From Candidatus Curtissbacteria bacterium (GTDB lineage: Bacteria > Patescibacteriota > Microgenomatia > Curtissbacterales > GWA2-41-24): a stretch of 64,000 nucleotides of DNA. How positions within the stretch are numbered: position 1 is the stretch's first letter; each line of letters starts with the position of its first letter. The position numbers and the translations under genes are program-made. Below, in pieces: positions 2,670 through 32,742 of the stretch. The stretch lies in the NCBI GenBank assembly GCA_030647775.1, contig JAUSJC010000007.1, forward strand, positions 50,038 to 114,037. Direction: 5' to 3'. A model generated the notes under the pieces. The model searched no databases and was not told the DNA's origin. It saw only the letters and a list, made by a program, of their open reading frames with translations.

Positions 2670-2954
2670 GTGACTGACGAAAATTTAAAAAAGATAACTA
2701 AGATTGTTAGGGTTGAGATTGGTGATGCACTTAAGCCTGTCAATAAGAAACTTGACGGACACGATAGCCAGTTTAAGTCTATTACAAAGAAACTTGATGA
2801 ACATTCCCAAAGGTTAGAATCTCTCTATTTGGATATGACAGATGTCCAGAAAAAAACGGATTTATTGCCAGATATATATGATATTGTTAAGGGCACTAAA
2901 GAAAAGGTCGATGACCACGAAGAAAGACTCCAAGTTTTGGAAAACGCCGCTTAA
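2670..2954 (+). CDS. coiled-coil repeat protein, paralog 1 (unknown function)
   Basis: GTG start; repeated 'KKLDxHxxxL' heptad-like units; C-terminal 60 aa about 85% identical at DNA level to the ORF at 4984..5289. Confidence 0.5.
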   Translation: MTDENLKKITKIVRVEIGDALKPVNKKLDGHDSQFKSITKKLDEHSQRLESLYLDMTDVQKKTDLLPDIYDIVKGTKEKVDDHEERLQVLENAA

Positions 2955-3110
2955 ATATTAATAGCTTCCATAATCCGCAAGGATTATTTATAATCCTGGT
3001 CTCCCAGCCCTTCTTCGTTCCACTCATCAGGGTCTCCGACAGAATAAAATCGAAGAAGGCACTGAGGAGTCATGACATTAGGAAGGACGACGAAGTGATA
3101 AAATTCATCC

Positions 3111-3356
3111 ATGTCTTTTTTTATTTATATTCTTGAATGTGCTGACAAGACTTACTATGTCGGTTGCACCAATGACCTAGAACGAAGGCTAAAACAACAC
3201 AACGAATCCAAGTGGGGCGCCCACTATACAAAAATTCGAAGACCTGCAACCTTAAAATATTCAGAAGAATTTAAAACTCTTTTAGAAGCGCGTAGAAGAG
3301 AAGCGGAAATCAAAGGCTGGCGTAGACAGAAAAAAGAATTACTTTGGAAGTCTTAA
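3111..3356 (+). CDS. stand-alone GIY-YIG nuclease-domain protein (UPF0213/YhbQ-like)
   Basis: 'FIYILEC...YYVGCTNDLERRLKQHN' GIY-YIG core; 81 aa. Confidence 0.7.
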   Translation: MSFFIYILECADKTYYVGCTNDLERRLKQHNESKWGAHYTKIRRPATLKYSEEFKTLLEARRREAEIKGWRRQKKELLWKS

Positions 3357-6825: not shown

Positions 6826-7479
6826 TTAAATTGATTGAAGTTTTTCAAAGCTAATTTCTTTAAAATCCCTAATGATGATATCTGCTTTTTCTAGGTCTTG
6901 TTTGTTGTAAGGAAGTCCTGCAAAACCAATACATTTCATGCCGGCTGCTTTGGCAGCATTTATTCCATGAGTTGAATCTTCTATCACTAAACAGTGGACT
7001 GGGGCTGTATTTAATTTTTGGGCAGCTCTTAGGAATATGTCGGGGGCTGGTTTGCCATTTTTGACATCGTCGGAGGACACAATTATAGGAAAGTGCTTGT
7101 GAAGCTTAATTATCTTAATTAAAGTAGATACTCTTTTTTGGGAGGCTGATGAGGCGACTGCTAGTTTTAATTTTAGTCGTGATAGTTCTTTAACTAATTC
7201 GACGGCACCGGGTACAGCTTTAAGATCTTTGCTTGTTTTCAAAAAATTAATGTAGCTTTCCCTTCCATCTGTAATTAATTCCTCCAATGTCTTTTCTAAT
7301 TGGTATTCCTCCTTTAGCGTTTCCCAGATTACTTTACTGGATGAGCCTCTGAATCGCTCACCGATAGTCTCGGGAGCTTTAATTCCTAATCTTTCCAGGT
7401 ATTTGACTAAATGAATATCGTTTAGGGGTTCTGTATCGACAAGAACTCCATCCATGTCGAAGATTATGGCTTTAATCAT
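6826..7479 (-). CDS. HAD-IA family hydrolase (beta-phosphoglucomutase-like phosphatase)
   Basis: 'IIFDMDGVLVDTE' motif I, 'ASSA' motif II, and 'GIKAGKAAG...IE DS' motifs III/IV. Confidence 0.75.
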   Translation of the reverse strand: MIKAIIFDMDGVLVDTEPLNDIHLVKYLERLGIKAPETIGERFRGSSSKVIWETLKEEYQLEKTLEELITDGRESYINFLKTSKDLKAVPGAVELVKELSRLKLKLAVASSASQKRVSTLIKIIKLHKHFPIIVSSDDVKNGKPAPDIFLRAAQKLNTAPVHCLVIEDSTHGINAAKAAGMKCIGFAGLPYNKQDLEKADIIIRDFKEISFEKLQSI

Positions 7480-7593
7480 ATAGAGATTATATCAACTTCT
7501 TAAAAATACTACCGTTCTCACTCCAAGCCAAATCCTGATTATGGAATTGATGATATCTCCGAAGTGCTTCCTTTGATACTTAAATAACGCTTT

Positions 7594-8277
7594 CTACACC
7601 AGGGGTTTTTGGCCGCTTTCCTTGAAATCGTCAAGGAATTTTTTGAGGCCGATATCGGTTAGCGGATGCTTTACCAATTTCTCCAGTACATCGTAAGGGC
7701 AGGTGGCAATGTCGGCACTGGCAAGGGCCGCTTGTTTTACATGAAGCGGAGAGCGCACGGACGCAAAAAGGATTTTGGTTTTGAAGCCGTAATTATCGTA
7801 GATTTGGCGGATTTCATCTATCAGGTCAATTCCGGTTTGGCCGATATCATCAAGCCTGCCGATAAAGGGGCTGACAATATAGGCGCCAAGTTTGGCAACA
7901 AGAAGTGCCTGGTTGGCGCTAAACACAAGGGTCATGTTAACTCGGATGCCAGTCTTGGTCAAAACCTTTAGCGCTTTTAGGCCTTCTTCTGTTGTCGGTA
8001 ATTTGATGACTACGTTTTTACCCATTTTTGTCAAGGCTCTCCCCTCTCGGATCATGCCCGGGGCGTCGGTTGATAAAACTTCGAGGCTGATATTATCGGG
8101 AACAATTTTGAGGATTTTGGCGACAGCTTCTTTGTAGGTCATCCCGGCTTTTGCCGCTAAGGATGGGTTTGTAGTCACGCCGTCGATTATTCCAAGAGCC
8201 ATCATCTTTTCAACTTCTTGGGGTACGGCGCTATCAATGTAAAGCTGCATGAGAGGATTTATTGTATCAAGTATCAT
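7594..8277 (-). CDS. transaldolase / fructose-6-phosphate aldolase family
   Basis: 'IDGVTTNPSL' and 'IKLP' lysine region typical of the short TalC/FSA family; -35 TTGACA on the minus strand about 25 nt upstream of the ATG. Confidence 0.8.
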   Translation of the reverse strand: MILDTINPLMQLYIDSAVPQEVEKMMALGIIDGVTTNPSLAAKAGMTYKEAVAKILKIVPDNISLEVLSTDAPGMIREGRALTKMGKNVVIKLPTTEEGLKALKVLTKTGIRVNMTLVFSANQALLVAKLGAYIVSPFIGRLDDIGQTGIDLIDEIRQIYDNYGFKTKILFASVRSPLHVKQAALASADIATCPYDVLEKLVKHPLTDIGLKKFLDDFKESGQKPLV

Positions 8278-8433
8278 GTATCACTTGCTAAGTGTCAAGG
8301 AATTAAAGTTTCCAACTCTATATGTGATAAAATTATTCGAAACTAAAGCAGGGTATATCAGCAGGTCGCTTTGGCACAGCCCTTCGGGCTTCATGCCAAT
8401 AGCGCTCCTCTGATATTCCTCCTCACTACGTTC

Positions 8434-8505
8434 GGGGGTATAGCTCAATGGTAGAGCACTCGCCTCTTAAGCGAATGGTTCAGGGTTCAAATCCCTGTGC
8501 CCCCA
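8434..8505 (+). tRNA. tRNA-Lys(CTT)
   Basis: GGGGGTA acceptor, D-loop AATGGTA, anticodon loop CUCUUAA, T-loop TTCAAAT; CCA not encoded. Confidence 0.8.
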
Positions 8506-8506
8506 C

Positions 8507-9988
8507 TTATTCTCTGACAAGGAGCTGAAAATGGCCGATATTTACTTCGTAGCTTATTGGTTTTCTTAAATTGTCTTCCTCCGTGGTTTTTTGAATCCAA
8601 TGGGGCCACTGGCGGTCGAGACTTGGCTCGATAATTGTGAATTCTGTTTTCGTAATTTCACCGGATCTTGGGAAAACCTCGATTCCCGGGAATGTTGATG
8701 CCGTATTGCCGTGGAAATGAGGCAGGAGAAGGTTATTTTGCTTGGCATACAGCTGGTATAGGTACGCCCAAGTCGTCGGGATATAAAGCGGGTTGGTAAC
8801 AGCATTGATGCTGAACCTTTGGACTGGAGAAATCTCGTAGGTTTTTTTAACGAGCGCCATTTCGTCTTTAAAAATCATGCCGTCCTGAATTCTGAATAGG
8901 ACACTGCCTTTTTGGTTCTTCTCAAAAACGGTAAGGGAGTTAGTAAGAATAATAGCGCCGATTATCAGGACAAAAGCGTATTTTGAAAATAGGCTGACCC
9001 TATGTAAAAAATAGGCGGTCAATACCAAAAGAGGGATGAGACTGCCGAGAGTTATGTAATACGAGCTGAAAGAAGACACGATAAAGATTGGTATATTGGC
9101 AAATAGAAGTATGAGCAGGAAGAGTAATGGCTTCCTTATTTTTTTATCGGTTTTGGCAAGGTAGATAGCAAAGGAAATTATGGCTAGGCCAAGAATGACA
9201 GAGATTGGCCCTGATTGAGGAAATAAATTATTACTGAGCTGCTCTTGCCATTTTTTTAAATATTCCATTAGTTGAGTGTCCAGTGCCGTTTTGGCGCCGA
9301 TGTTGCCGGCGAAAAAATCTGCCGCGCCTTTTATCCCCTGGAACTTAAATTTAAGTTCGGCAACTGCGAAGCTTGAAATAAGAAAGAGGAACCCGGATGC
9401 CCCTAAAAGCATCTCTTTTCTTGGGAAGTACCTGACATTTGCGATTGCCAGTGTCACCAATGCTGATAATATGAGATAGACTAAGAAAATCTGCGTCTGG
9501 ATGGCCAGACCGAGGGCAAGAAAAGTCATGACCCAGCCCCCTTTTTGTTTATGGACGATTTGCCAAAGGCCAAGGTAGAAAAAAGCAATTGCCGGTACTG
9601 CCAGAGATGGGTTGGAAATCCATCTGGCATAAGAAACGGCCTCGAAGGAAACGGCGTAAAGGATGAGGGCGACGATTGAAATAGAAGTGTTTTTGAAGAG
9701 TTTTTGCGTCAATTGCCAAAGAGGAATGAGGACTAAAAGATTGATTAATATCATTTCGATTAAAACTACTTGGGGATCGCCACTGCCCAAAAAGTAAAAT
9801 GGGGAGATAACGTAATAGAAAAGCGGGCCGTGGAAAAACCCCGGGATATCGCTTGGCGGGCCGACAATTTTCAGGTGGCCTTTTGTAATGCTTTGGGCGA
9901 AAAAAGCGTCCCTTGCCTGGTCATAAGTGAAAAGTAAAGTGGAGAGACCCGGCGTAAGCCGCAGGATAAAAGCAAGGGTAACAATCAA
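8507..9988 (-). CDS. polytopic integral membrane protein, possibly a GT-C-type glycosyltransferase
   Basis: 493 aa with more than 10 predicted TM helices and large loops; family not identified with certainty. Confidence 0.4.
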   Translation of the reverse strand: MIVTLAFILRLTPGLSTLLFTYDQARDAFFAQSITKGHLKIVGPPSDIPGFFHGPLFYYVISPFYFLGSGDPQVVLIEMILINLLVLIPLWQLTQKLFKNTSISIVALILYAVSFEAVSYARWISNPSLAVPAIAFFYLGLWQIVHKQKGGWVMTFLALGLAIQTQIFLVYLILSALVTLAIANVRYFPRKEMLLGASGFLFLISSFAVAELKFKFQGIKGAADFFAGNIGAKTALDTQLMEYLKKWQEQLSNNLFPQSGPISVILGLAIISFAIYLAKTDKKIRKPLLFLLILLFANIPIFIVSSFSSYYITLGSLIPLLVLTAYFLHRVSLFSKYAFVLIIGAIILTNSLTVFEKNQKGSVLFRIQDGMIFKDEMALVKKTYEISPVQRFSINAVTNPLYIPTTWAYLYQLYAKQNNLLLPHFHGNTASTFPGIEVFPRSGEITKTEFTIIEPSLDRQWPHWIQKTTEEDNLRKPISYEVNIGHFQLLVRE

Positions 9989-10013
9989 AAGAATAATAAT
10001 GAGTTTTATGCCC

Positions 10014-10265
10014 CTACCCTACTTCTTCTTGCAGTTCTTCGTCAACGTTTAGGGGACCCGGACCATGGGCTTCGTCGCCGTGCAAACCGACCTTTTTGAG
10101 TTCTTCGTCAATGTCCGGGGACTCGGAAGTTGTGGCGTCGCCGGAAAAAACATCTTCCTCGCCGGTTACAGAAGGAGGCGCAACCGGGTCTTGAAATTGG
10201 TTTTCCTCTGTCCCGGTGTCATTGATATTCGGAGCGTTTGGAATTGTGTGGTCGTCCGGAGCCAT
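10014..10265 (-). CDS. hypothetical acidic low-complexity protein
   Basis: 83-aa ORF rich in D/E/P/T; may not be coding. Confidence 0.25.
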   Translation of the reverse strand: MAPDDHTIPNAPNINDTGTEENQFQDPVAPPSVTGEEDVFSGDATTSESPDIDEELKKVGLHGDEAHGPGPLNVDEELQEEVG

Positions 10266-10294
10266 AATTATATTTTAGCAGAAATTGTGCGGTG

Positions 10295-10377
10295 TGCCGA
10301 GAGAGGGGATCGAACCCTCACGCCATTGCTGGCACAAGATTTTAAGTCTTGCGTGTCTGCCATTCCACCACCTCGGC
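10295..10377 (-). tRNA. tRNA-Leu(TAA)
   Basis: Class II tRNA with long variable arm; anticodon loop CUUAAAA; acceptor GCCGAGG; T-loop GGTTCGATCC. Confidence 0.8.
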
Positions 10378-10488
10378 CCGTTAGAAGTACGGTGATCGAT
10401 TTTTATTTTAAATAGTATATCAAAAATTTAAGAACGAATTGTGCCTTATTATAATAACCAAACTTCTAACGGGCCTCGGCTGGGTTTG

Positions 10489-10562
10489 GGGAGGCCGAGG
10501 GGAATTGAACCCCCAACCCGCAGCTCCACAAGCTGCTGCTCTACCATTGAGCTACGACCTCC
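10489..10562 (-). tRNA. tRNA-His(GTG) with G-1 and genomically encoded CCA
   Basis: Anticodon loop UUGUGGA; extra 5' G opposite discriminator C73; the only tRNA in the window followed by an encoded CCA. Confidence 0.8.
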
Positions 10563-10609
10563 ACGAATGGCCATATTATATCAGTTTTACGAGTTACGAT
10601 CAGAGTAAA

Positions 10610-11305
10610 TTAACTGGCGAAGCGATATTTTAATAAGATATATATTGCCCTAAAGCCATCCTTGATGCCGATTTTTTTCCCTTCCTGATAACTGCGGCTT
10701 TTATATGCGATTGGGATTTCCACGATTTTTAAGCCTTTTTTAAGAAGCTTACAGGTAATTTCCGGCTCAAAACCAAACCTGTCTTCACGCAGCTTGATTC
10801 CCTTTAAAACTTCACTCTTAAAGCATTTATAACAGGTTTCCATGTCTGTAATCTGGGCCCGGTAGAGGATCTTTGTCAGAAACGAAAGGAAAAGGTTACC
10901 GGCATAAAAAAGCAAATATTTTGGTTTGTGGTTGGGGTTCAGGAATCTTGAGCCGTAAATGACGTCGGTGCCGCTATTTTTTATTTCTGAAATTAATTTC
11001 AAATGATCGTTTGGGTCATACTCCAAATCGGCGTCCTGGATAAGGATTATCTCCCCTTTTGCTTTTGAAAACCCCGAGCGGAGGCAGTACCCTTTTCCCC
11101 TATTTTTGTTATTCCAGATTTTGGTAATGCCGGCGATTTTATCTATTTTCTCCTGCGTGCTGTCCTTTGAGCAATCGTTAATAACGATAATTTCAAACGT
11201 GCCCGGGTATTTGACTTTTTTAACGGCCGCGACGATTTGCCCGATTGTTTTTTCTTCGTTATAGGCGGGTATGATAATAGAGAAATCGATTTTTCTGCTT
11301 TTCAT
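10610..11305 (-). CDS. family-2 glycosyltransferase (dolichol-phosphate mannosyltransferase-like)
   Basis: 'FSIIIPAYNEE' plus 'INDCSKD' plus 'IQDADLEYDP' (DxD) GT2 motifs. Confidence 0.8.
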   Translation of the reverse strand: MKSRKIDFSIIIPAYNEEKTIGQIVAAVKKVKYPGTFEIIVINDCSKDSTQEKIDKIAGITKIWNNKNRGKGYCLRSGFSKAKGEIILIQDADLEYDPNDHLKLISEIKNSGTDVIYGSRFLNPNHKPKYLLFYAGNLFLSFLTKILYRAQITDMETCYKCFKSEVLKGIKLREDRFGFEPEITCKLLKKGLKIVEIPIAYKSRSYQEGKKIGIKDGFRAIYILLKYRFAS

Positions 11306-11964: not shown

Positions 11965-12279
11965 CACTATTGGCATTTTTTAAATTTAGCTTGTTTGTAC
12001 AATCCGAAAGGGGTTCGAAGATTAAATATCACAAAAAGGCATAGCTTCGAGACGGGTTCGAAGATAGGACTACAGTATAATTTGATCTAAGTTAACCTAA
12101 TTCTAACCAAAAGATAACCTAATTCAAGTCAACCAGATACGCACAAACTTGACGCAGTTTGATCTAAATGGATACAATACTTGACGTAGTTTGTGCTATT
12201 GCCATTTTTTGCCGGGGGCATTTAAGATATCTATAGATATCTGCACTTTAATTAATTACGGGTAGGGTAAAAGAAACAG

Positions 12280-12368
12280 TCCTGCCGACGAGATTCGAAC
12301 TCGCAAAAACCGTGTCACGGGTTAGTAGCTTGATAGGCCACCGCGTCTACCAGTTGCGCCACAGCAGG
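12280..12368 (-). tRNA. class II (long variable arm) tRNA of uncertain identity, embedded in a 13-bp leader/trailer inverted repeat
   Basis: Acceptor CCUGCUG/CGGCAGG, 3-bp D-stem with GG D-loop, variable stem-loop CCGU-GAC-ACGG, T-loop GAGTTCGAATCTC. The best fold gives anticodon loop CUAUCAA (formal anticodon AUC), which matches no Leu/Ser/Tyr/Sec isoacceptor. Confidence 0.5.
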
Positions 12369-22731: not shown

Positions 22732-22834
22732 GCCCGCGTAGCTCAACGGATAGAGCAGTCGCGTTCTAAGCGATTGTGGGGGTACGCTTTTTCGCGTAGC
22801 GAAAAACTCGAGAAGTCAGATCCCTCCGCGGGCA
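22732..22834 (+). tRNA. tRNA-Arg(TCT)-like gene carrying a roughly 35-nt hairpin insertion in the T-loop
   Basis: Collinear with the canonical tRNA-Arg(TCT) at 29913..29985 through the acceptor, D-arm and anticodon arm (loop GUUCUAA). The T-loop TTCGAAT is replaced by 'T-ACGCTTTTTCGCGTAGCGAAAAACTCGAGAAGTCAG-AT'; the T-stem (GGGGG/CCCTC) and acceptor are preserved. Confidence 0.5.
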
Positions 22835-22914
22835 CAGGAAATTATGGCGTGTAGCGGAAGGATTGGGCTCTGCCCGATGCCTACCCACCCCGACTTTTCG
22901 CGCGCTAAATTCCA

Positions 22915-23000
22915 AAAGTACCGGGTGCAGGCAAGCGGAGCTGTACCAAAAAAATCCGAAGTGCTATTGCCCTGAGTTTATCGAATGGGCTAAAATTAGC
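22915..23000. repeat. 87-bp direct repeat, copy 1 (promoter/5'UTR-like), upstream of the DUF4258 toxin gene
   Basis: Shares 'ATCCGAAGTGCTATTGCCCTGAGTTTATCGAATGGGCTAAAATTAGC' (47/47) with 23583..23667, and the upstream 40 nt at about 80% identity. Confidence 0.7.
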
Positions 23001-23011
23001 CAACTTAGACG

Positions 23012-23266
23012 ATGAAAATTATTTATACACAACATTCGGAAGAAAAACTTAAACGGAGAGATATTAAGAAGTTCAAAATTAATAAAAAACTAATTAAATC
23101 AATTTTAAAAGATCCTCAAATTAAATCCAAAACAAAGTATGGTGATAGCTGCGCCCTGTCAGCTATCAATGGTGACCACGACATAAGAATTATCTATGAT
23201 ATAATAAGTAAAGATAATTCTAAGGTTATAACCTTTCATATCTCTAAAAGAGGCAGGTACGGATGA
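23012..23266 (+). CDS. DUF4258-family toxin (toxin of a DUF4258/DUF2283 TA pair)
   Basis: 'IIYTQHSEEKLKRRDI...IRIIYD...KVITFHISK' matches the DUF4258 pattern; 4-nt overlap (ATGA) with the downstream partner. Confidence 0.55.
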   Translation: MKIIYTQHSEEKLKRRDIKKFKINKKLIKSILKDPQIKSKTKYGDSCALSAINGDHDIRIIYDIISKDNSKVITFHISKRGRYG

Positions 23267-23475
23267 AATTAAAATATTACAAAAAAGACGACATTTTGGT
23301 TATGAATTTTTCCTCAAAAGCTGTTGAGGATTCGTATGAAGTGGAAAGCGCGATTTTAGAAGTCGATAAAGAGAACAATCCTGTATCACTAGAAATTCTG
23401 CATGCTTCCAACTTTTTTAATACAGCCTCCAAAGAACTTCCAATCGGAATCAAGCAAAAATTTTTCTCAGCCTAA
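23263..23475 (+). CDS. DUF2283-family antitoxin
   Basis: 'MKLKYYKKDDILVMNF...VSLEILHASN' matches DUF2283 (consensus 'MKIEYDKEADALYI...GIEILNAS'). Confidence 0.55.
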   Translation: MKLKYYKKDDILVMNFSSKAVEDSYEVESAILEVDKENNPVSLEILHASNFFNTASKELPIGIKQKFFSA

Positions 23476-23582
23476 CTCCTTGCGCTTTCGCACATATCAT
23501 CACAAACTGTGATGATATGGATTAAATACAATCGTAAAAGGTCACCATATATTTTTGCGCTGAGGATTCCCAAAACGCGCCA

Positions 23583-23667
23583 AAGTACCGGGCGCAGGCA
23601 AGCGGCCCTATCCCCAAAAAATCCGAAGTGCTATTGCCCTGAGTTTATCGAATGGGCTAAAATTAGC
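23583..23667. repeat. 87-bp direct repeat, copy 2, upstream of the 732-aa ORF
   Basis: See copy 1. Confidence 0.7.
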
Positions 23668-23687: not shown

Positions 23688-25886
23688 ATGGCACAACAAT
23701 ACCTTGAATTAAAAACAAGCGAAGGCTCTGTAAGAAAATATCCAAACGTCATGTGGTTTCCTCGTTCCAAGACTGACCCCCAAGAAATAAGAGAGGTGCT
23801 TAAACTTGCCTTAAAAATACAAGACGAAAATTCTGATAAATATTTCAATGATAAATTATTGGGTGAACACATGGCACGAATAGGATCAATTAATGTCCTG
23901 GGGATGAAAGGGGAAGATTATATAAAATCGTACCAAGGAAAAAGTATTGGAGACGTTTCTTATATAACCAATGCTCGCATGTTGATGCGACTTTTTAGAT
24001 TCCTTGGTCTTGCCACTAGACTTGAAAGGGGGAAATACGCAATTACTGTACTTGGTAGAACCTATGTAAAATTTAATGGGGACTTCCCTTCTCAGCTAAA
24101 TGGGGAAAATGAAGAACAGATACTGCTACAATTACTCGCAAACTTTGCATTTTACTGCGTTAACGACGACAGCAAGTACAGAGATTCGTCTTTTCAAGTT
24201 AGGCCTTTCATTTGGCTACTCAACACATTAGCTATTGAGCCGCAATGCATTATTCAACTTATCGTAACCGCTTATGCTTCCAAAAGTGAAGGTTTTAATG
24301 AAATTAAAAGGATTAAAAATATTTTAAGTAATCTCAAATCAGGGAAAAGCACCCTTAAAGACGAGTTCACAAATCTAGGGCTGAATCCTAACGACTATAG
24401 CTGCGTTCATAATTTTTACGATAGTGCAAAGATATTAGTTTACTTGGGAATAAGCTTGGGGCTAGTAAAAAAAACCAAAAGCCCTACATATGGAAGAAAA
24501 ATTGCGGGAAACGCTAAGTATCTTAAAAACGCGTCTGCTTTTTACAATCTTACCGTAAAGGGCGAGAAGTATTTAGAAGAAAATATTCAGAAAAAACTCA
24601 TTTATTACTCCGACTTATACAAGGTACTAGGAAACAAAGACGTCCTTCAGTGCTCCTTTATATTAGCGGTGCTCAACACTTCAATCGGCGCTAAGAAAAT
24701 TGAGTCCATAAATATTAATTTTTTCAAAAAAATCTTGGGAAACAAATGGGAAAAATATACAAACTCTCTTAGAAAAAACCTGCAAATTGAAATAGAAATA
24801 AAAGATGGAAAAGTTGCTCTAAAAGATCGGATTTCATTCAACTTTTTCCAAAGCATGCCCCCCGAGTTTTTATACGATGAACCTATGAAAAATTGGTACA
24901 CTGTATTCATGGAGGAATTTAGTGACAAAAAATCTAAGTTATTAAATACAACCACATCAAAAATGGAAGAGCAATTTTCGGGAGAAATAACATCCAAATT
25001 TATACTAGACAAAGATAAAAATCTTGCATACGAAGTTCCTTCACTCACTCTCAAAGAAGCACAAGATTACATAAAGTACGAATACATGGACAATATTTTT
25101 GGGGGTCAAGATAGATATGCTAGTAGGATTTCTCCAACAAATTCAGTAATTCTAGTGGGTGATAAGGTTCATGTAGACAATGTCATTGACGCTCTTGACT
25201 TATTAATTCCGCTTAGACATCCAGACGAAAGGTTAAGAAAATTTATCGATGCCAACATTTCTCAGTTGCTAAAAACCTTTTTGTCCAGATCTGATACATG
25301 GGCAAAGGATCAACATTACGCATGGGTAAGAAACTGCTTTAGACTTTTTGGGGCTACGGCAATTTACTCCGGTTCTAGCGGCATGCTTTCTAGAGCAGAC
25401 ATTAGCATCATTGATCCATTTCTTGGTGGCGTTGAAGCAAAAAGCCCTAGTGAGAACAGGGGCAGTATAAACACAAAAGCAATTAGACAAGCACTCGATG
25501 CTAAAGTTCAGGTTGTAGATTTATATCCCGAAAAGAAAGGCATTCCAAAAATTGCGATAGCAATCGGAAGAAGAATTACTCCATTAGCAATTGCAGAAGA
25601 AAAGAAATGGCGATCAGGAGAAAATCAACCAGTACTTCTAATAACTGATGTAGTTCTTTACTATTTAACACTTAAGTCACTTGATATTCCCTTTGACGAC
25701 AAAGATTTAATTAGACTTTTTACCCAAAATGTAGGACTGCTCGATACGAAATCTTTGAGTGTATCCCTTGAAGAAATAATGAATAACAAAAAAATAGATA
25801 GTCAGGTTAAAGAGAAAATTAGAGAGGAGCTCAATAACTTAGGGGGATTGGTAAGTGGCTCGATTGAGGGAGCAATCGAGGAGTAA
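23688..25886 (+). CDS. large hypothetical protein (732 aa); candidate restriction endonuclease or defense effector partnered with two DNA methyltransferases
   Basis: No recognised family. A possible PD-(D/E)xK-like 'IIDPFLGGVEAK' lies near residue 570. Convergent with, and overlapping by 56 nt, the first MTase gene. Confidence 0.35.
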   Translation: MAQQYLELKTSEGSVRKYPNVMWFPRSKTDPQEIREVLKLALKIQDENSDKYFNDKLLGEHMARIGSINVLGMKGEDYIKSYQGKSIGDVSYITNARMLMRLFRFLGLATRLERGKYAITVLGRTYVKFNGDFPSQLNGENEEQILLQLLANFAFYCVNDDSKYRDSSFQVRPFIWLLNTLAIEPQCIIQLIVTAYASKSEGFNEIKRIKNILSNLKSGKSTLKDEFTNLGLNPNDYSCVHNFYDSAKILVYLGISLGLVKKTKSPTYGRKIAGNAKYLKNASAFYNLTVKGEKYLEENIQKKLIYYSDLYKVLGNKDVLQCSFILAVLNTSIGAKKIESININFFKKILGNKWEKYTNSLRKNLQIEIEIKDGKVALKDRISFNFFQSMPPEFLYDEPMKNWYTVFMEEFSDKKSKLLNTTTSKMEEQFSGEITSKFILDKDKNLAYEVPSLTLKEAQDYIKYEYMDNIFGGQDRYASRISPTNSVILVGDKVHVDNVIDALDLLIPLRHPDERLRKFIDANISQLLKTFLSRSDTWAKDQHYAWVRNCFRLFGATAIYSGSSGMLSRADISIIDPFLGGVEAKSPSENRGSINTKAIRQALDAKVQVVDLYPEKKGIPKIAIAIGRRITPLAIAEEKKWRSGENQPVLLITDVVLYYLTLKSLDIPFDDKDLIRLFTQNVGLLDTKSLSVSLEEIMNNKKIDSQVKEKIREELNNLGGLVSGSIEGAIEE

Positions 25887-26640
25887 TTTCATTTAATCTT
25901 TTCTCCGCCATTTCTACATATTTAGGATTTAATTCAAAACCAATATATTTTCGATCATTCATTCTTGCACTTACGCATTCACTCCCTGACCCCACGAATG
26001 GCATCAACAATGTGTCTCCCTGATTTGAAAAATGGTTGATGATTTTATGACATATGGCTAACGGTTTTTGCGTAGGATGATCAACTTTCTCGTTAGCAAA
26101 TCTTTTACCCGCTAACGTAGGAATTTCCCATATATCTCCACCATGCTTTCCTTCAGGATGTGGCGTCCAGACCTTACCATTTTTTATAATTTTATTCCTT
26201 AATCTCTCCGTACTTTTATAAGGTTCCCTAATCGTATGGTAAGTGTAATCTTTACCTTTATAAAACCATAATAGAGGTTCGTAAGCGGCTGCAGGCGCGC
26301 GTCTATACATTGAAAAGTTATTTTCATAATGCCAAATAAATAATCTCCCATAGAATAACCCTATATCGTATAAGTATGCCTGAATGTACCCAATATTATG
26401 ATGAATACCATATACAAAAAGAGAACCATTTGGCTTTAGGACTCGCTTTGATTCCTTTAGCCATTTTTTCATCCACTTAAACCATTCTTCATGATTCTTG
26501 AGATTCCATTTTTCACCATTTCCAAAATCTTTTTCTATTCCATATGGAGGATCTGCAATAATTAGGTTAATTGATTCATTGTCAATTTTTTTATATAAAT
26601 CAAGACAATCACCGGTATAAATTTTATTTAAATTAAACAT
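25831..26640 (-). CDS. DNA methyltransferase, beta-class N6A/N4C family (DPPY)
   Basis: Motif IV 'ADPPYG' near the N-terminus, motif I 'MPFVGSGSE' near the C-terminus (beta-class order). Confidence 0.8.
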   Translation of the reverse strand: MFNLNKIYTGDCLDLYKKIDNESINLIIADPPYGIEKDFGNGEKWNLKNHEEWFKWMKKWLKESKRVLKPNGSLFVYGIHHNIGYIQAYLYDIGLFYGRLFIWHYENNFSMYRRAPAAAYEPLLWFYKGKDYTYHTIREPYKSTERLRNKIIKNGKVWTPHPEGKHGGDIWEIPTLAGKRFANEKVDHPTQKPLAICHKIINHFSNQGDTLLMPFVGSGSECVSARMNDRKYIGFELNPKYVEMAEKRLNEITPRLLPQSSHLPIPLSY

Positions 26641-26641
26641 G

Positions 26642-27499
26642 CTACTTATTGTTCTGCAAGATTAGTATATATTGATTGTGAATATTGGGAACATAAGAAA
26701 AAGGATATCCATAGGGAAAGATTTTTTTGCGGCTTTGATAGAGTATAGTTATTCCTTTCAATTTATAATTCTTTTGTTCTAATTTGTTAGCAAGATCTGC
26801 ATGGAACATATAATATCTATCTTTGTGTCTAAAATCGCTAACTACTATACATAAATATTTCTTTGGTTTTAAAATCCGACTACAATCATTGAAAAAACCG
26901 GACAAAATTTCAAGAAACTGATCATAATCAGTAATATTTCCTAAATCTTCTTTAAGTTCACTATATTTTGTGTCTAGACCATTTGAAATCCGAGTGGAAA
27001 TGACTTTATGGTCAGCCTTTTTATTTAAAATACTCCAGTACGGAGGACTCGTTACAATAAAATCAAAATGGTCATCTTTAAAATCTTCGACCACTTTCAG
27101 CGCATCTCCTTGAATAACAGACTGGTCTTTATTGTCAAATAAACCATTGAGTTCAGTCTCAAGTCTCTTTTTCGTTAACTCCACATATTTAGGAACTAAC
27201 TCAATACCGACACCCCTTCGATTTAATATAGCGCAGGCCTTAAGAGTAGATCCTACTCCAACAAAAGGGTCTAATACTTTCTGCCCTGATTTCGTAAAGA
27301 ACCTGATTAGCCTTCCCACGTCTTGGAAAGAATATGGAGCGGGATGTTGTTTCTCAATTTGAGCTTCTTTATGGCCTGCCCCTAATCCTTTTTGAACATA
27401 CACCGAGATTGTTTCGGGAATCCATTCTGAGGCTGAAAGATCATTAAGATTATTTACAAGTTTCCTCTTCAACTGCCCATCGTTTATATTTAAACCCAT
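26642..27499 (-). CDS. DNA methyltransferase (SPPY motif, probable N4-cytosine type)
   Basis: Motif I 'DPFVGVGST' then motif IV 'TSPPYW'; SPPY/SPPF is characteristic of m4C methyltransferases. Confidence 0.7.
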   Translation of the reverse strand: MGLNINDGQLKRKLVNNLNDLSASEWIPETISVYVQKGLGAGHKEAQIEKQHPAPYSFQDVGRLIRFFTKSGQKVLDPFVGVGSTLKACAILNRRGVGIELVPKYVELTKKRLETELNGLFDNKDQSVIQGDALKVVEDFKDDHFDFIVTSPPYWSILNKKADHKVISTRISNGLDTKYSELKEDLGNITDYDQFLEILSGFFNDCSRILKPKKYLCIVVSDFRHKDRYYMFHADLANKLEQKNYKLKGITILYQSRKKIFPYGYPFSYVPNIHNQYILILQNNK

Positions 27500-27671
27500 T
27501 GTTATTATTAAATTTATTCTACACAGTATCTAACCACAATTAACACACAACATTAAATATACGAATAAAACCCGAAGATGTCAAGCGTGGACTTGACCCT
27601 AATTAAACCTAGTTGGGTTGTGTAACAACAAAAAACCAAGTAAGATCTATCACAAATCTTAAAATAATTAG

Positions 27672-28051: not shown

Positions 28052-28639
28052 TTAGGAATTATTCTTTAAGATTCCTTCCTTTTGCAGTCTTCTTAAAATA
28101 ACAGCGTCTGAAACTTGAAAAATTTCAGGTAGATCCTGCACAGCTGGAGCAATGATTTCCGGTAATTCCATGGATGGAATTTTTCCGAGCCGCTTTTTTA
28201 ATTCTTCAAGCAATTGCTCAGTTGGAACCAAAACCAATCCCGCAAAAGTATGTGCTTGTATTTCAGTAAACTTGTAAACTTGCTCATCTATTCGATCATG
28301 AGATGTAAGATATTCTTCAAAATTATTCGGTCCGTACTTTTCGTACCATTCCTTGTGCAATATTAAATGACCAACTTCATGGGCGATGGAAAATCTCGTT
28401 CTTTCGGGAAAACGCGTGAAATAATTTTCATCAACCGTTATTTGGGTAAAGTCCGAACTTATAAATGCATCTACTCCAATTAATGATCTAATGCCTGGTA
28501 CCGCGAACAGAGCAATTCCCATTTTGCTTTCAACTATATTTTCAATTGGAATTGGTAGGGTTAGCGAGGAATGATATGTCTGTAAAAATTTATCTGCTGC
28601 TCGTGCTACATCTACTAATCTTAAATTCGGTCCTTGCAT
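28052..28639 (-). CDS. ImmA/IrrE-family metallo-endopeptidase (DUF955)
   Basis: 'SIAHEVGHLILH' HExxH motif in the DUF955 context; immediately downstream of an XRE HTH gene. Confidence 0.7.
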   Translation of the reverse strand: MQGPNLRLVDVARAADKFLQTYHSSLTLPIPIENIVESKMGIALFAVPGIRSLIGVDAFISSDFTQITVDENYFTRFPERTRFSIAHEVGHLILHKEWYEKYGPNNFEEYLTSHDRIDEQVYKFTEIQAHTFAGLVLVPTEQLLEELKKRLGKIPSMELPEIIAPAVQDLPEIFQVSDAVILRRLQKEGILKNNS

Positions 28640-28642
28640 CCA

Positions 28643-29038
28643 TTATTCCTTCTTACCGACATCATTGAGAAGCTTGATTAATTGGATAATTTTCTTTTTA
28701 TCCAACTTTTCACCTCTAGCAGTTCTGTAAAAGGCAGGCAAAATAGAAAGAATGTGTGGACTTTTAAGCAAATCCTCTGGGAGTTTTCCTTTTGCTGCAT
28801 GAGCAAGATCAAAGAATATTGTCCATTCTTCGCTGTCGCGCGGAATTTTTAAGGCTAATGCGTATCCTTCAAGTTTTTGTTTATCTATGCTTGGAGGAAG
28901 AATATTTCTTTCAAGTCTGCTGATGTTACCCGGGTCGTAGCTATACCTTTCACAAAAAGATCTCAAGGTAAACCCTAAGGTTATTCTTTTTAATCTGAAA
29001 AATTCTCCGAAGGTTTGAGCAGTGTCTTGACTTTTCAC
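28643..29038 (-). CDS. XRE-family helix-turn-helix transcriptional regulator
   Basis: N-terminal 'FGEFFRLKRITLGFTLRSFCERYSYDPGNISRLERN' HTH_3-like segment; 4-nt gap before the ImmA partner. Confidence 0.6.
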   Translation of the reverse strand: MKSQDTAQTFGEFFRLKRITLGFTLRSFCERYSYDPGNISRLERNILPPSIDKQKLEGYALALKIPRDSEEWTIFFDLAHAAKGKLPEDLLKSPHILSILPAFYRTARGEKLDKKKIIQLIKLLNDVGKKE

Positions 29039-29129: not shown

Positions 29130-29339
29130 ATGGCAGTATTTAAGATCTACAAAGACGTTCAAGGCTATTACCGATGGCGATTCCGAGCAGCTAACAATAA
29201 AATCATCGCCGACAGCGGTGAAGGATACGTAAAGTGGCAAGATGCGAAAGCAGGAATAGATTTTATTAAGAAATATGCACCTGATGCCGAAGTTAAAGAC
29301 TTAACCGCACAAAAAACTGCTCGAGGACTCTTTAGTTAA
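29130..29339 (+). CDS. DUF1508 (YegP-like) protein
   Basis: 'FKIYKDVQGYYRWRFRAANNKIIADSGEGY' matches the DUF1508 repeat. Confidence 0.55.
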   Translation: MAVFKIYKDVQGYYRWRFRAANNKIIADSGEGYVKWQDAKAGIDFIKKYAPDAEVKDLTAQKTARGLFS

Positions 29340-29391
29340 AGGAGGTGAAGTCGATGAAATTTATACAAATTGCGGTTACCCGCGCAGGGGA

Positions 29392-29553
29392 AATGTATTT
29401 AGTATTTAGGATTGTGGTTTAGTCCCAGTACTAGATTCCGGGCTTGGAGTCGGCGAGGGAATTACTGTTGGATTAAATACGGGTTCGACAAGCTCACTGC
29501 TATAACTTGTACCTCCGCGATATCTGTCACCTTAAGCACGTTGGGATTTTAGC
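29392..29553. repeat. repeat family C copy 1 (about 160 nt)
   Basis: About 80% identical to 31528..31667. It contains the hairpin ACAAGCT-N9-AGCTTGT and the conserved 'CCGCGATATCTGTCACCTTA'. Confidence 0.65.
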
Positions 29554-29831
29554 TTCGTTTCTTGAGCAGCTAATTAATTTTGGCTTGGATGGTAAAAAAC
29601 TAAAACTGTCCGAACTTAAAAAACACTTTAGTAGGTTGCAGATAGATCCGGCGAAAAAAAGGTATTTGAAGTTTTTGCTCTCCTCGCCCCAATGAGCCAA
29701 ACACACATTCTAACTGAGAGGCAAAAGCTTCTTTGAATGAGCGCGATTGGCAGGATTTTTTTCTGATCTGGAATGTTATAATCCCCAAAGCAGCAGACCG
29801 GTTAGAATTTCGTCCAACCAGCCGCTCCCAT

Positions 29832-29877
29832 GCGCCTGTAGCTCAACGGATATCAGCAGCGCTTCGCGCTCTGATAT
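29832..29877 (+). other. tRNA 5' fragment (acceptor plus D-arm of the tRNA-Arg family) fused to an unrelated hairpin
   Basis: 'GCGCCTGTAGCTCAACGGATA' is identical to the 5' 21 nt of the tRNA-Arg-like genes, then 'TCAGCAGCGCTTCGCGCTCTGATA'. Confidence 0.4.
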
Positions 29878-29912
29878 TTTTAAGTTACACTTAAAAAGAG
29901 AGCAAATTTTAT

Positions 29913-29985
29913 GCGCCTGTAGCTCAATGGATAGAGCACTCGCGTTCTAAGCGATTGGTTGGGGGTTCGAATCCCTCCAGGCGCA
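29913..29985 (+). tRNA. tRNA-Arg(TCT), canonical copy
   Basis: Acceptor GCGCCTG/CAGGCGC, anticodon loop GUUCUAA, T-loop GGTTCGAATCC. Confidence 0.75.
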
Positions 29986-29995
29986 CATAAAATTA

Positions 29996-30075
29996 ATCGC
30001 GTTCTAAGCGAATGATTGGGGGTTCGCTTTTTTCGCGCAGCGAAAAACTCGAGAAGTCAGATCCCTCCAGGCGCA
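29996..30075 (+). other. tRNA-Arg(TCT) 3'-half fragment (anticodon stem to 3' end) carrying the T-loop hairpin insertion; att-like
   Basis: 'TCGCGTTCTAAGCGAATGATTGGGGGTTCG-CTTTTTTCGCGCAGCGAAAAACTCGAGAAGTCAG-ATCCCTCCAGGCGCA'; the same insertion as at 22732..22834 with compensatory changes in its stem. Confidence 0.5.
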
Positions 30076-30244
30076 CACACGTCTTGCTCCGACGTAAACG
30101 CTTCAGTTTCTCTCATGTATAATATTTTTAGTGAAGATTTCCGGCGGGCTTGTTGTTAATCTTATTGCAGGTTTAAAAGGACTTATGTCAAAAACATATA
30201 CCAAAAATTAAGAAAGATGTTTGTGGAGATGAATAAAAATTACT

Positions 30245-30772
30245 ATGGCTAAAAAACAGGCAATAAAAAAATTACCGGATAATCAAATCGCTTTCTATCA
30301 ATCACCTGATGGATCAGTGAATATTGAAGTGCTGTTTGCCGAAGAAAATATCTGGCTCACCCAAAAGAAAATGGCAGAGCTTTTTGATTGCTCAACAGAT
30401 AATATCTCGCTTCATCTAAAAAACATCTTTGGGGAAAAAGAATTGGATAAAGATTCAGTTACCGAGGAATACTCGACAACCATGACAAGCGGTTTAATGA
30501 GAGGGTCAAATATAGTTGCCTCGGTGCCAAAATATCTAGTGATGCCAGAAGAGAGAGAAGAGCAATTCAACAGAAAAATAAAGTCGCCTTTATTCGCAGA
30601 AAGATTCAAAGATGATAATTGGCAAATCCTTTATTTTGATTCAATCAGAAATAATTGGAAAAAACTTAAACAGAAAAATATAAAACTTGGCTCATTAGTG
30701 GGTAAAAAAGGCCCAGAAGCACTCCGCCCTAATTCTAATGAAAATGATAATGGACAAATAGGACTTTTATAA
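30245..30772 (+). CDS. RhuM-like (virulence protein RhuM family) DNA-binding protein
   Basis: 'IAFYQSPDGSVNIEVLFAEENIWLTQKKMAELFDCSTDNISLHLKNIF' matches the RhuM N-terminal signature. Confidence 0.55.
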   Translation: MAKKQAIKKLPDNQIAFYQSPDGSVNIEVLFAEENIWLTQKKMAELFDCSTDNISLHLKNIFGEKELDKDSVTEEYSTTMTSGLMRGSNIVASVPKYLVMPEEREEQFNRKIKSPLFAERFKDDNWQILYFDSIRNNWKKLKQKNIKLGSLVGKKGPEALRPNSNENDNGQIGLL

Positions 30773-30815
30773 TAAATGGGGCTTATTGATCACAAAAATC
30801 TAAAAATTATTAAGA

Positions 30816-31313
30816 TTATTTTAAATACCTATAAATTCCGAAAACATGAATAGCTTTTCTCTTTATCACGTTTATATGTGTTTCTAGCTTATAAATATTT
30901 GCCGGAAAGTCCTTGATATCTTTTGTCATAAGATAAATGTTTTTACCATATTTAACTAATGTTCCACCTAATAAAAGGTCTACGATTGAGATATCTTTAC
31001 CTTCTATTCCGTAAAGTTTTAATAACCCGATTGCATTGTCAAATACACCCTTTTCCAGAGGTATAATTGCATCAATGATTTCATCAAGGAATTTTTTCTT
31101 TTCTTCAAAAATCTTCAATTCAAAAGAACCTTTAGTAAACTCAATTAACACGGCATTGACGGTAACTAAAGTCACGCCATTTCCTTTCAATTCATTGAAG
31201 AATTTGCCATATTCACCCGGATTATGGAACGCGTCTATAAAGACATTTGTATCAAGAAGCAAATGAGAATTTTTAAGAGTTTGGAAAAATCCCTGAGGTG
31301 TTACTATTTGCAT
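30816..31313 (-). CDS. PIN-domain toxin (VapC-like)
   Basis: 'LLLDTNVFIDA' N-terminal acidic motif; further conserved acidic residues downstream. Confidence 0.65.
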   Translation of the reverse strand: MQIVTPQGFFQTLKNSHLLLDTNVFIDAFHNPGEYGKFFNELKGNGVTLVTVNAVLIEFTKGSFELKIFEEKKKFLDEIIDAIIPLEKGVFDNAIGLLKLYGIEGKDISIVDLLLGGTLVKYGKNIYLMTKDIKDFPANIYKLETHINVIKRKAIHVFGIYRYLK

Positions 31314-31449
31314 CGCTTCTAGTTTTTTCGAGATACCTTTCCTCTTCGTCGAAATATTTCTTTATTTTAGCTGCAAGTTTTTCAAACTTATTAATATCAA
31401 TCTTTTTGCCCTTTTTAGTTTTGGGAAGAGTTTCACTTTTTGTTTTCAT
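31273..31449 (-). CDS. putative antitoxin partner of the PIN toxin
   Basis: Small basic ORF 'MKTKSETLPKTKKGKKIDINKFEKLAAKIKKYF...' overlapping the PIN gene start. The ORF-track start at 31509 would run into repeat C2, so the internal Met is preferred. Confidence 0.4.
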   Translation of the reverse strand: MKTKSETLPKTKKGKKIDINKFEKLAAKIKKYFDEEERYLEKTRSDANSNTSGIFPNS

Positions 31450-31527
31450 TTTGATGACCTCTAAATATAGTATACCATTTGTCGTAAATACTCTAAGTAC
31501 CCAAAACAATTCCCGTCGCGCCTTGGA

Positions 31528-31667
31528 GATGTATTTAGTTTAGGGCCTGGAAGCGCCAGATGTTGACTCTACCGGGCTGGGAGTCGGTGAGGAGATTACG
31601 GTGGCGTTAAATACGGGTTCGACAAGCTCACTGCTATAGCTTGTACCTCCGCGATATCTGTCACCTT
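31528..31667. repeat. repeat family C copy 2
   Basis: See copy 1. Confidence 0.65.
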
Positions 31668-31904
31668 ATTTCAATAGACTTTCTTTGGAAGTTCAAAATA
31701 GAAATCTTATGAGGTGTGTTTATAGCTCTTGGAGCAAAGATTAAAACGACTCTTGTGGTGCTAATCTGTCGTATTCCGTAGATAATTTTTTTTGCAACTT
31801 ATTCGAACCACGTACCGCTTCTTTAATTATTCGTTTCTTTTCTTTAGCGGGTAATTCGAAGAAGTTTGTACCTTTGTCTTTTTTGATCAAGAAATTGAGT
31901 ACTT

Positions 31905-32633
31905 TCATTTAATTAATCTCTCCAGATCTTGTTCATTGTACCCTATTTTAAGGTGGTTATCAATCATATCGATATTAAACTTAGTATTCTCTTGCTCATT
32001 TGTATAATTCTTCTCAACTAAATGAAGCTCAATTTTATCACCAAGAATCTTTTTCACTTTATTCACGTTCGCTTTAGCTAAAAAGAACGAATTTATAAAC
32101 ATATCTTTTGAAACATGTCTTCCTTCAACCTTTTCTCTCTTCTTTGTAAAATCCCATGCAATAAGAGGATCCTGGTATAGGTAGAAAATACCAACCTTCC
32201 GACCTCTATTTAAGGCTCTCTTAACATCTTGAAACCCTTTACCAAAGTCAGAAAACGTTCCATCAACAATAACATTCTGACTTCTTTTTTGAACTTCATC
32301 GTAAAGTTTCTCAACGCCTAATGCGGCCGCCCCTTGAAACTTGTAAGCATTGCCGCCCGTGTAGCCTGGAATAATATCCCTAATTTCGTCAGCGTCTATC
32401 CTAATAATTTTTGTATTGGGATCGTAGTTTTTTATAAACGACTTAGAATATTCTGTTTTGCCTGCACCAGGGGAACCGGCCATAAAAATTGTGAAAGGGT
32501 TGGATACGCCAGGAAATTTAGTAGGGTCAGCAAATTTTTCAATAAGCAAATTCTTATTATCTCTAACCCATTTCTTTGCTTTTTCTTCTAGATCATTATT
32601 ATTCATCGACTGATTATAGCAATTAAGGATCAC
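31905..32633 (-). CDS. zeta-toxin family P-loop kinase
   Basis: Walker A 'GSPGAGKT' in a zeta-toxin-like context ('IFMAGSPGAGKTEYS...RIDADE'). Confidence 0.7.
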   Translation of the reverse strand: MILNCYNQSMNNNDLEEKAKKWVRDNKNLLIEKFADPTKFPGVSNPFTIFMAGSPGAGKTEYSKSFIKNYDPNTKIIRIDADEIRDIIPGYTGGNAYKFQGAAALGVEKLYDEVQKRSQNVIVDGTFSDFGKGFQDVKRALNRGRKVGIFYLYQDPLIAWDFTKKREKVEGRHVSKDMFINSFFLAKANVNKVKKILGDKIELHLVEKNYTNEQENTKFNIDMIDNHLKIGYNEQDLERLIK

Positions 32634-32659
32634 ACCTTACTGCGCCGAAGAAGTAGACT

Positions 32660-32742
32660 GAGGGACAGGAGAAGAAATCATTGTTGCATTGAATACTTGA
32701 ACCTCGGCGATATCTGTCACCTTAAGCACGTTGGTATTTTAC
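32660..32742. repeat. repeat family C copy 3 (internally deleted)
   Basis: 'ACCTCGGCGATATCTGTCACCTTAAGCACGTTGGTATTTTA' matches the 3' 45 nt of copy 1 (including the 'AAGCACGTTGG' tail); the central hairpin is missing. Confidence 0.55.

Follow-up and report, generated by a model that had tools for sequence, protein, structure and literature searches.

The stretch of DNA analysed here, which will be referred to as the window, comprises 64,000 nucleotides of a Candidatus Curtissbacteria genome (GenBank assembly GCA_030647775.1, contig JAUSJC010000007.1, positions 50,038 to 114,037); all positions given below are those of the window. Three open reading frames at 23688-27499 form a candidate type IIS restriction-modification module. 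The gene of a 732-amino-acid protein (23688-25886, forward strand) converges on two reverse-strand genes encoding methyltransferase A (25831-26640, 269 amino acids) and methyltransferase B (26642-27499, 285 amino acids). The convergent genes overlap at their 3′ ends by 56 nucleotides (25831-25886), and the stop of methyltransferase B and the start of methyltransferase A are 1 nucleotide apart. An earlier note, made from the sequence alone, had described a 732-amino-acid frame converging with this overlap on a DPPY and an SPPY methyltransferase, and coordinates, lengths, orientations and overlap were all reproduced. The forward gene, in the following called the nuclease gene, is assigned to a restriction endonuclease of type IIS architecture on the basis of its reading frame, 54 other homologous clusters, a structural model and fold matches.

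Nuclease, methyltransferases and their co-inheritance

The 732-amino-acid protein matches no Pfam family at E ≤ 0.1, including no FokI family profile, finds no match in NCBIfam or PADLOC and nothing meaningful in PHROGs, and was matched to no PDB sequence either by single sequence (phmmer) or by profile (hmmsearch). The label "orphan", which it had been given before, is inaccurate, as 54 other homologous clusters at the 90% identity level were found, 47-67% identical to the window protein, mostly metagenomic and all unnamed or "hypothetical". Of these, 53 are full-length (709-763 amino acids) and one is a 415-amino-acid fragment. The exact 732-amino-acid sequence already has a database entry, as a hypothetical protein from a Candidatus Curtissbacteria metagenome-assembled genome (MAG). 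Alignment A1 was composed of 29 close sequences, 47-67% identical to the window protein, and alignments A2 and A3 of 15 and 19 sequences, respectively, including relatives of 15-29% identity. About 160 positions are invariant in A1, among them, near the C-terminus, D571, P577, G581, E583, K585, S586, P587, R600 and Q601. A profile search of 1.8 billion representatives (50% level) yielded 76 matches, none of them functionally named, and revealed a modular family with profile positions ~20-320 and ~520-705 each found alone in other architectures. The A2 profile recovered the close clade and nothing further from a database of 5.8 billion proteins. Searching with A1 uncovered one full-length locus (Saccharibacteria, L009) and one short fragment (Cytophagales, L010) in the GTDB genomes, and no related locus in IMG/VR.

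Structure prediction, which the earlier note had recommended, gave FokI, N.BspD6I and BpuJI as the best fold matches. The model was built with AlphaFold2 (AF2) on A1 and reached a mean predicted local distance difference test score (pLDDT) of 86.8 and a predicted TM-score (pTM) of 0.74. Comparison with the PDB by Foldseek placed FokI (1FOK) first with E 1.6e-10, followed by the nickase N.BspD6I (E ~1e-6) and the recognition domain of BpuJI (E 3e-3). All specific top matches belong to the type IIS restriction enzymes and share the order of domains with the 732-amino-acid protein. When the regions of the model were compared separately, the N-terminal part matched the recognition domains of BpuJI, FokI and BspD6I, and the C-terminal part matched the BspD6I small subunit and the FokI cleavage domain. 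The model thus displays separable domains for sequence recognition and for cleavage.

The chain opens with an N-terminal arm (amino acids 1-30; 23688-23777), which is without regular secondary structure in the DSSP assignment of the model and strongly conserved in A1, residues R16, K17, Y18, W23, F24, P25, R26, S27, K28, T29 and D30 being invariant. The N-terminal arm of BpuJI contacts DNA, and by analogy the arm of the 732-amino-acid protein may do the same. It is followed by a predicted DNA-recognition region of helix/beta-hairpin (winged-helix-like) modules (amino acids ~31-400; 23778-24887), by what remains, without the cysteines, of a 2x[4Fe-4S] ferredoxin-like domain (amino acids ~415-512; 24930-25223), which was delimited in a MAFFT alignment with Fer4-bearing relatives, and by the predicted PD-(D/E)XK cleavage domain (amino acids ~514-700; 25227-25787), all encoded on the forward strand.

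The catalytic motif D571-x11-E583-A-K585 (25398-25442, forward strand) was assigned from its invariance and its position in the model. D571, E583 and K585 are invariant not only in the 29 sequences of A1 but also in A2 and A3 with their relatives of down to 15-29% identity. In the AF2 model, D571 stands directly before strand 572-576, E583 ends strand 579-584 with K585 next to it, and a helix (596-612) carrying R600 and Q601 leads to strand 621-627. As modelled, these elements make up the canonical PD-(D/E)XK core with the triad on the second and third core strands. The motif IDPFLGGVEAK had previously been pointed out as a weak resemblance to such a site. It indeed holds the invariant E583-x-K585, but the partner acidic residue is D571 and not the D of "IDPF". 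Since the triad is invariant and located on the canonical strands, the motif once called weak represents a real active site.

By sequence, both methyltransferases are intact PF01555 enzymes. Methyltransferase A matches this family with E 1.2e-49 and shows the motif order of a beta-class N6_N4 enzyme, with DPPY at residue 30 and FVGSG at residue 215; it resembles M.MboIIA (1G60) along its full length (E 1.2e-39), a similarity at the family level. Methyltransferase B matches PF01555 in two stretches (E 1.7e-25) and the PADLOC model MTase_II (PDLC03391) across its full length (E 4e-36). Here, DPFVGVG at residue 77 precedes SPPY at residue 151, thus motif I comes before motif IV as in permuted N6_N4 enzymes. 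DPPY motifs are characteristic of enzymes forming N6-methyladenine (m6A) and SPPY motifs of those forming N4-methylcytosine (m4C). By these motifs, methyltransferase A probably generates m6A and methyltransferase B m4C, and each might modify a different strand.

The close orthologues of methyltransferase B make up more than 100 clusters at ≥63% identity. Fusion to a LexA-type winged helix (PF01726) is frequent among orthologues of this enzyme, as in P0189, P0200, P0209 and P0214 and at the loci L003 (10908-12053) and L005 (8896-9978). Some forms of ~497 amino acids carry a LexA/S24 peptidase domain (PF00717) as well. This domain composition suggests a self-cleaving, SOS-like control of a restriction-modification methyltransferase. 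In some relatives a HTH_17 protein neighbours methyltransferase B; no controller protein was found in the window.

The three genes are inherited together. In six out of six independent close loci (L001/L002, L003/L004, L005, L006, L007 and L009) the nuclease converges on A followed by B. The proteins encoded there are 50-59% (nuclease), 63-72% (A) and 61-75% (B) identical to those of the window, and the nuclease gene is full-length in every close locus. Seven related convergent loci, five of them close and two distant, have called genes, and in each of these the 3′ overlap is likewise kept, with 4-79 nucleotides. At the distant loci L008, L015 and L016, two N6_N4 methyltransferases stand beside each nuclease, and methyltransferase B of L008 is 56% identical to that of the window. 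One complete N6_N4 gene was found in L014 together with a cut-off reading frame matching methyltransferase B by tblastn. In L017, which is the region 1282661-1295572 of the complete genome (AP024710.1) of the cultured Leptolinea sp. HRD-7, a methyltransferase B orthologue (65% identical) and a second N6_N4 methyltransferase converge on a split nuclease. Serine recombinases adjoin the module in L001, L003 and L007.

Proposed mode of action and alternative readings

The three genes very probably represent a mobile type IIS restriction-modification module with a FokI/BspD6I-style nuclease, located on a horizontally acquired island. Gene layout, fold, conserved triad and co-inheritance are its foundation; the type IIS-like restriction-modification system proposed in the earlier note is supported by the fold matches to FokI, N.BspD6I and BpuJI, by the invariant PD-(D/E)XK triad and by the co-inheritance. 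That note had also considered a nuclease family not yet described, or a defence effector of another kind. This holds at the level of the sequence family only and not for fold and architecture, which are of the known type IIS kind. The kind of system is accordingly an ordinary one, and its new part is the unannotated sequence family of the nuclease.

In the proposed mode of action, the N-terminal arm and the winged-helix-type modules (amino acids ~1-400) would read an asymmetric DNA site, as their fold suggests, and the PD-(D/E)XK domain (amino acids ~514-700; D571, E583, K585) would cut non-specifically at a fixed offset from it. Because each chain has a single catalytic centre and no other nuclease gene lies close by, two molecules probably have to pair to cleave both strands, and they may associate transiently via their cleavage domains as in FokI. 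Methyltransferases A and B would share one transcript, started at a strong promoter on the opposite strand, and each is expected to protect one strand of the asymmetric site.

Several observations weigh against this reading. A sequence-level match to any characterised restriction enzyme is absent in Pfam, NCBIfam, PADLOC and the PDB, and the nuclease assignment therefore rests on predicted structure and context. Compared over the whole chain, FokI and BspD6I give low TM-scores (0.22-0.38) because the domain orientations differ, and the structural support is thus at the level of domains. For the relative P0106 of Planifilum fimeticola (L012), annotated as "4Fe-4S binding protein", ~7 kb of flanking sequence could be recovered, in which there is no methyltransferase. 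The family of methyltransferase B is very large, with 5524 matches at E ≤ 1e-20, of which a handful of contexts were inspected. Finally, k-mer depletion indicated no site avoidance within the 64-kb window, GAAGA (200 observed versus 199 expected), CTCTTC, GGATG and GAGTC all occurring near expectation, although this test is uninformative.

The 732-amino-acid protein might instead be a site-specific nicking endonuclease, like Nt.BstNBI or N.BspD6I alone, and the module a nicking-modification system. N.BspD6I ranks second among its fold matches, and no small-subunit gene as in the BspD6I/BstNBI heterodimer (large subunit N.BspD6I, 2EWF; small subunit, 2P14) flanks the 732-amino-acid frame; FokI is the best match and the catalytic triad is complete. 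We regard a nicking enzyme as unlikely. It is highly improbable that the nuclease has lost its catalytic activity or taken on another role, such as that of a DNA-binding regulator, following loss of an iron-sulfur domain, so that only the methyltransferases would function as an orphan methylation module. The window clade has in fact lost all eight cluster-ligand cysteines of its relatives. However, D571, E583, K585 and ~160 other positions are invariant among the 29 aligned clade members of 47-67% identity, which indicates that purifying selection acts on the entire protein and also on its active site; moreover, the gene is full-length in all loci, with the methyltransferases always alongside.

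The lack of any match for the large protein in Pfam, NCBIfam, PADLOC and PHROGs would also be compatible with a non-restriction defence system, in which a new effector merely neighbours the methyltransferases. We give this hardly any credence, as the protein exhibits the fold and domain order of type IIS enzymes and a canonical nuclease triad, contains no ATPase, helicase or sensor domain, and is encoded in a gene pairing exactly as in restriction-modification systems. Other classes of restriction systems were considered as well. Type IIG and type III were rejected, the nuclease having no methyltransferase domain and no helicase being present, and modification-dependent type IV was rejected because the nuclease is always paired with methyltransferases.

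Among the characterised enzymes, FokI (1FOK/2FOK) resembles the window nuclease at the fold level only; sequence similarity is undetectable and the Pfam FokI family is not matched. The window nuclease is ~150 residues longer and contains the extra relic ferredoxin-like segment between its recognition and cleavage domains. Its catalytic motif reads D...ExK, in contrast to D...DxK in FokI, and it is accompanied by two separate methyltransferases, whereas the partner of FokI is a single fused two-domain methyltransferase. To the recognition domain of BpuJI (2VLA/5HLT) the window nuclease shows no sequence similarity. The nuclease domain of BpuJI is related to archaeal Holliday-junction resolvases (PMC1874659) and, unlike that of the window enzyme, not to FokI.

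The MboII/HpyAII system, which recognizes GAAGA, combines an m6A-forming M1 with an m4C-forming M2. With 269 and 285 amino acids, methyltransferases A and B are likewise two small separate enzymes, similar in size to M1.HpyAII (260 amino acids), M2.HpyAII (287 amino acids) and M1.MboII (264 amino acids; PMC10810934). R.MboII and its isoschizomer R.HpyAII, on the other hand, are HNH enzymes (PMC4081073; PMC7494987), whereas the window nuclease is of the PD-(D/E)XK, FokI-like type. The resemblance of the window system to MboII is therefore limited to its modification half, and the analogy to MboII drawn in the earlier note applies to methyltransferase A, with its match to M.MboIIA, and fails for the nuclease.

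This assignment offers a function for a protein family that is named only "hypothetical" in the databases and comprises, besides distant relatives, 55 clusters at 90% identity. It would add a type IIS enzyme, possibly of new specificity, from the Candidate Phyla Radiation, for whose methylomes the searchable open-access literature contained nothing relevant. Type IIS enzymes serve as tools for Golden Gate cloning and as a source of programmable nuclease domains.

Relatives with an iron-sulfur domain

Many of the distant profile matches carry the motif CxxCxxCxxxC and match Pfam 4Fe-4S (Fer4) families. In the full-length relatives P0060-P0065, P0089, P0093, P0094, P0097 and P0105, a segment with eight cysteines is situated between the recognition and cleavage regions. 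Counting domains in the chain and on a separate subunit, the relatives listed with a 2x[4Fe-4S] domain are P0060-P0065, P0089, P0093-P0097 and P0104-P0106. CxxCxxCxxxC is found in none of P0001-P0059, which comprise the window clade and five fragmentary relatives. The window protein itself contains 5 cysteines, no CxxCxxCxxxCP motif and no Pfam Fer4 match. In the MAFFT alignment with the Fer4-bearing relatives, the window sequence "DRYASRISPTNSV" stands opposite "DRFADAVCPVDAI" of the relatives. The ligand positions of CxxCxxCxxxCP are occupied by D501, D504, I507 and H511 in the window protein, S482 also stands at a former cysteine, and the first CxxCxxxxC stretch is deleted in the window clade. 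Judged from this alignment, amino acids ~415-512 are a cysteine-less remnant of a ferredoxin domain, which in the window enzyme probably serves as a structural linker only.

An AF2 model of P0060 (29% identical) again gave FokI and BspD6I as best fold matches. Its cluster region was poorly resolved (pLDDT 30-68), and the ferredoxin fold there consequently relies on the Pfam matches and the cysteine motifs only. A split architecture was observed in L014 and L017, where the methyltransferases converge on two genes. The first gene encodes a protein of 572-579 amino acids with the recognition region and an active-type PD-ExK domain, and the second a protein of 357-359 amino acids with a Fer4 domain and a nuclease-like domain without the catalytic lysine; in Leptolinea sp. 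HRD-7 the two proteins have 579 and 357 amino acids. These two loci recall the large/small subunit pair of BspD6I and are the only ones to carry a separate second subunit. This subunit differs by its 2x[4Fe-4S] domain and the missing catalytic lysine; we know of neither feature in BspD6I. The Fer4-bearing relatives share the two-methyltransferase context (L008, L015 and L016).

Tentatively, and with slightly more doubt than conviction, we propose that the window enzyme is a cysteine-less offshoot of an undescribed type IIS superfamily in which a 2x[4Fe-4S] domain is either built into the chain (P0060, P0065, P0089, P0094) or located on a second subunit with a lysine-less nuclease-like domain (L014, L017). 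If the clusters are real and functional, this would be the first family of type II restriction enzymes to depend on iron-sulfur clusters. The clusters could then have a structural role, mediate redox or oxygen gating of cleavage, or participate in DNA-mediated sensing, and the window clade would show that the cluster is dispensable. A ferredoxin-type double [4Fe-4S] domain in relatives of a restriction enzyme, usual as it is in this superfamily, is unexpected to the specialist. No iron-sulfur enzyme among the type II restriction enzymes was found in the searchable open-access literature, which is not proof of novelty, and a 2014 reference review of the field mentions neither iron, Fe-S nor ferredoxin. 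As Leptolinea sp. HRD-7, which has one of the Fer4 relatives, is in culture and its genome is complete, the iron-sulfur question is directly testable.

The L015 locus, from a Kapabacteria MAG, is peculiar in its own right (88-390, 2938-3135 and 7310-10855). Two restriction-modification modules lie there among pieces of a dnaE region, one consisting of a 5-methylcytosine (m5C) methyltransferase, a 301-amino-acid partner and a helix-turn-helix (HTH) protein, the other being the Fer4-bearing methyltransferase-methyltransferase-nuclease module. Lying between short fragments of the PHP domain and a complete gene for DNA polymerase III alpha, they look like insertions into, or next to, a dnaE 5′ end that was duplicated.

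Promoter-like sites, island and neighbouring genes

Upstream of the methyltransferase operon, before methyltransferase B, a promoter-like site TTGACA-17-TATATT is found on the reverse strand (27556-27584), agreeing with the consensus at 11/12 positions. A weaker site, TTGCCC-18-TAAAAT (9/12), is located 25 nucleotides upstream of the nuclease ATG on the forward strand (23634-23663); both were recognized by consensus match only. In restriction-modification systems, methylation usually must be established before the nuclease acts, and a strong promoter-like site for the methyltransferases versus a weak one for the nuclease would fit this need. No terminator-like site was found in the window between the nuclease gene and methyltransferase A, which makes read-through antisense transcription plausible as a control mechanism.

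The weaker site lies inside the second copy (23582-23667, forward strand) of an 86-nucleotide direct repeat, 93% identical to the first copy (22915-23000), and an identical TTGCCC-18-TAAAAT site is present in that other copy (22967-22996). The repeat noted earlier upstream of the 732-amino-acid gene is therefore real, with a length of 86 rather than 87 nucleotides. Its first copy precedes two genes (23012-23475), for a DUF4258 and a DUF2283 protein, that resemble a toxin-antitoxin pair, and its second copy precedes the nuclease gene. None of the homologous loci has this repeat. A small cassette seems to have been inserted together with a duplicated promoter.

The module is located in an island of ~7.2 kb with a low GC content (0.32-0.37 compared to ~0.43 in the flanks), bounded by direct repeats derived from tRNA-Arg(UCU) at 22732-22836, 29913-29986 and 29997-30077. 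No integrase was found inside the island. Low GC, the tRNA-derived repeats and the serine recombinases at the loci of relatives make the module look mobile. At the left boundary stands a complete tRNA-Arg(UCU)-like sequence with a hairpin insertion of ~34 nucleotides in the T-loop, which folds into a cloverleaf and receives no ARAGORN or Rfam call. At the right boundary, a tRNA-Arg(tct) is intact, and the 3′ two-thirds of the version with the insertion come immediately after it.

A pair encoding an HTH protein and an M78 (IrrE/ImmA-like) peptidase adjoins the module (28052-29038, reverse strand), and a similar pair is found beside the homologous module in L001 (12495-13341); this could be a shared regulatory pair of the mobile element. 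Elsewhere in the window, ARAGORN predicted a tRNA-Asp of 90 nucleotides with the unusual anticodon ATC (12279-12368, reverse strand), which scores only 42.5 bits with the Rfam tRNA model. Downstream of the module, the region 29130-32741 contains a cluster of small genes of the addiction/defence type, encoding a DUF1508 protein (29130-29339), a PIN-domain protein (30816-31313) and a zeta toxin (31905-32633). Some of them are preceded by a 97-nucleotide direct repeat (29438-29534 and 31572-31668, 91% identical), of which a third, partial copy is present at 32695-32741.

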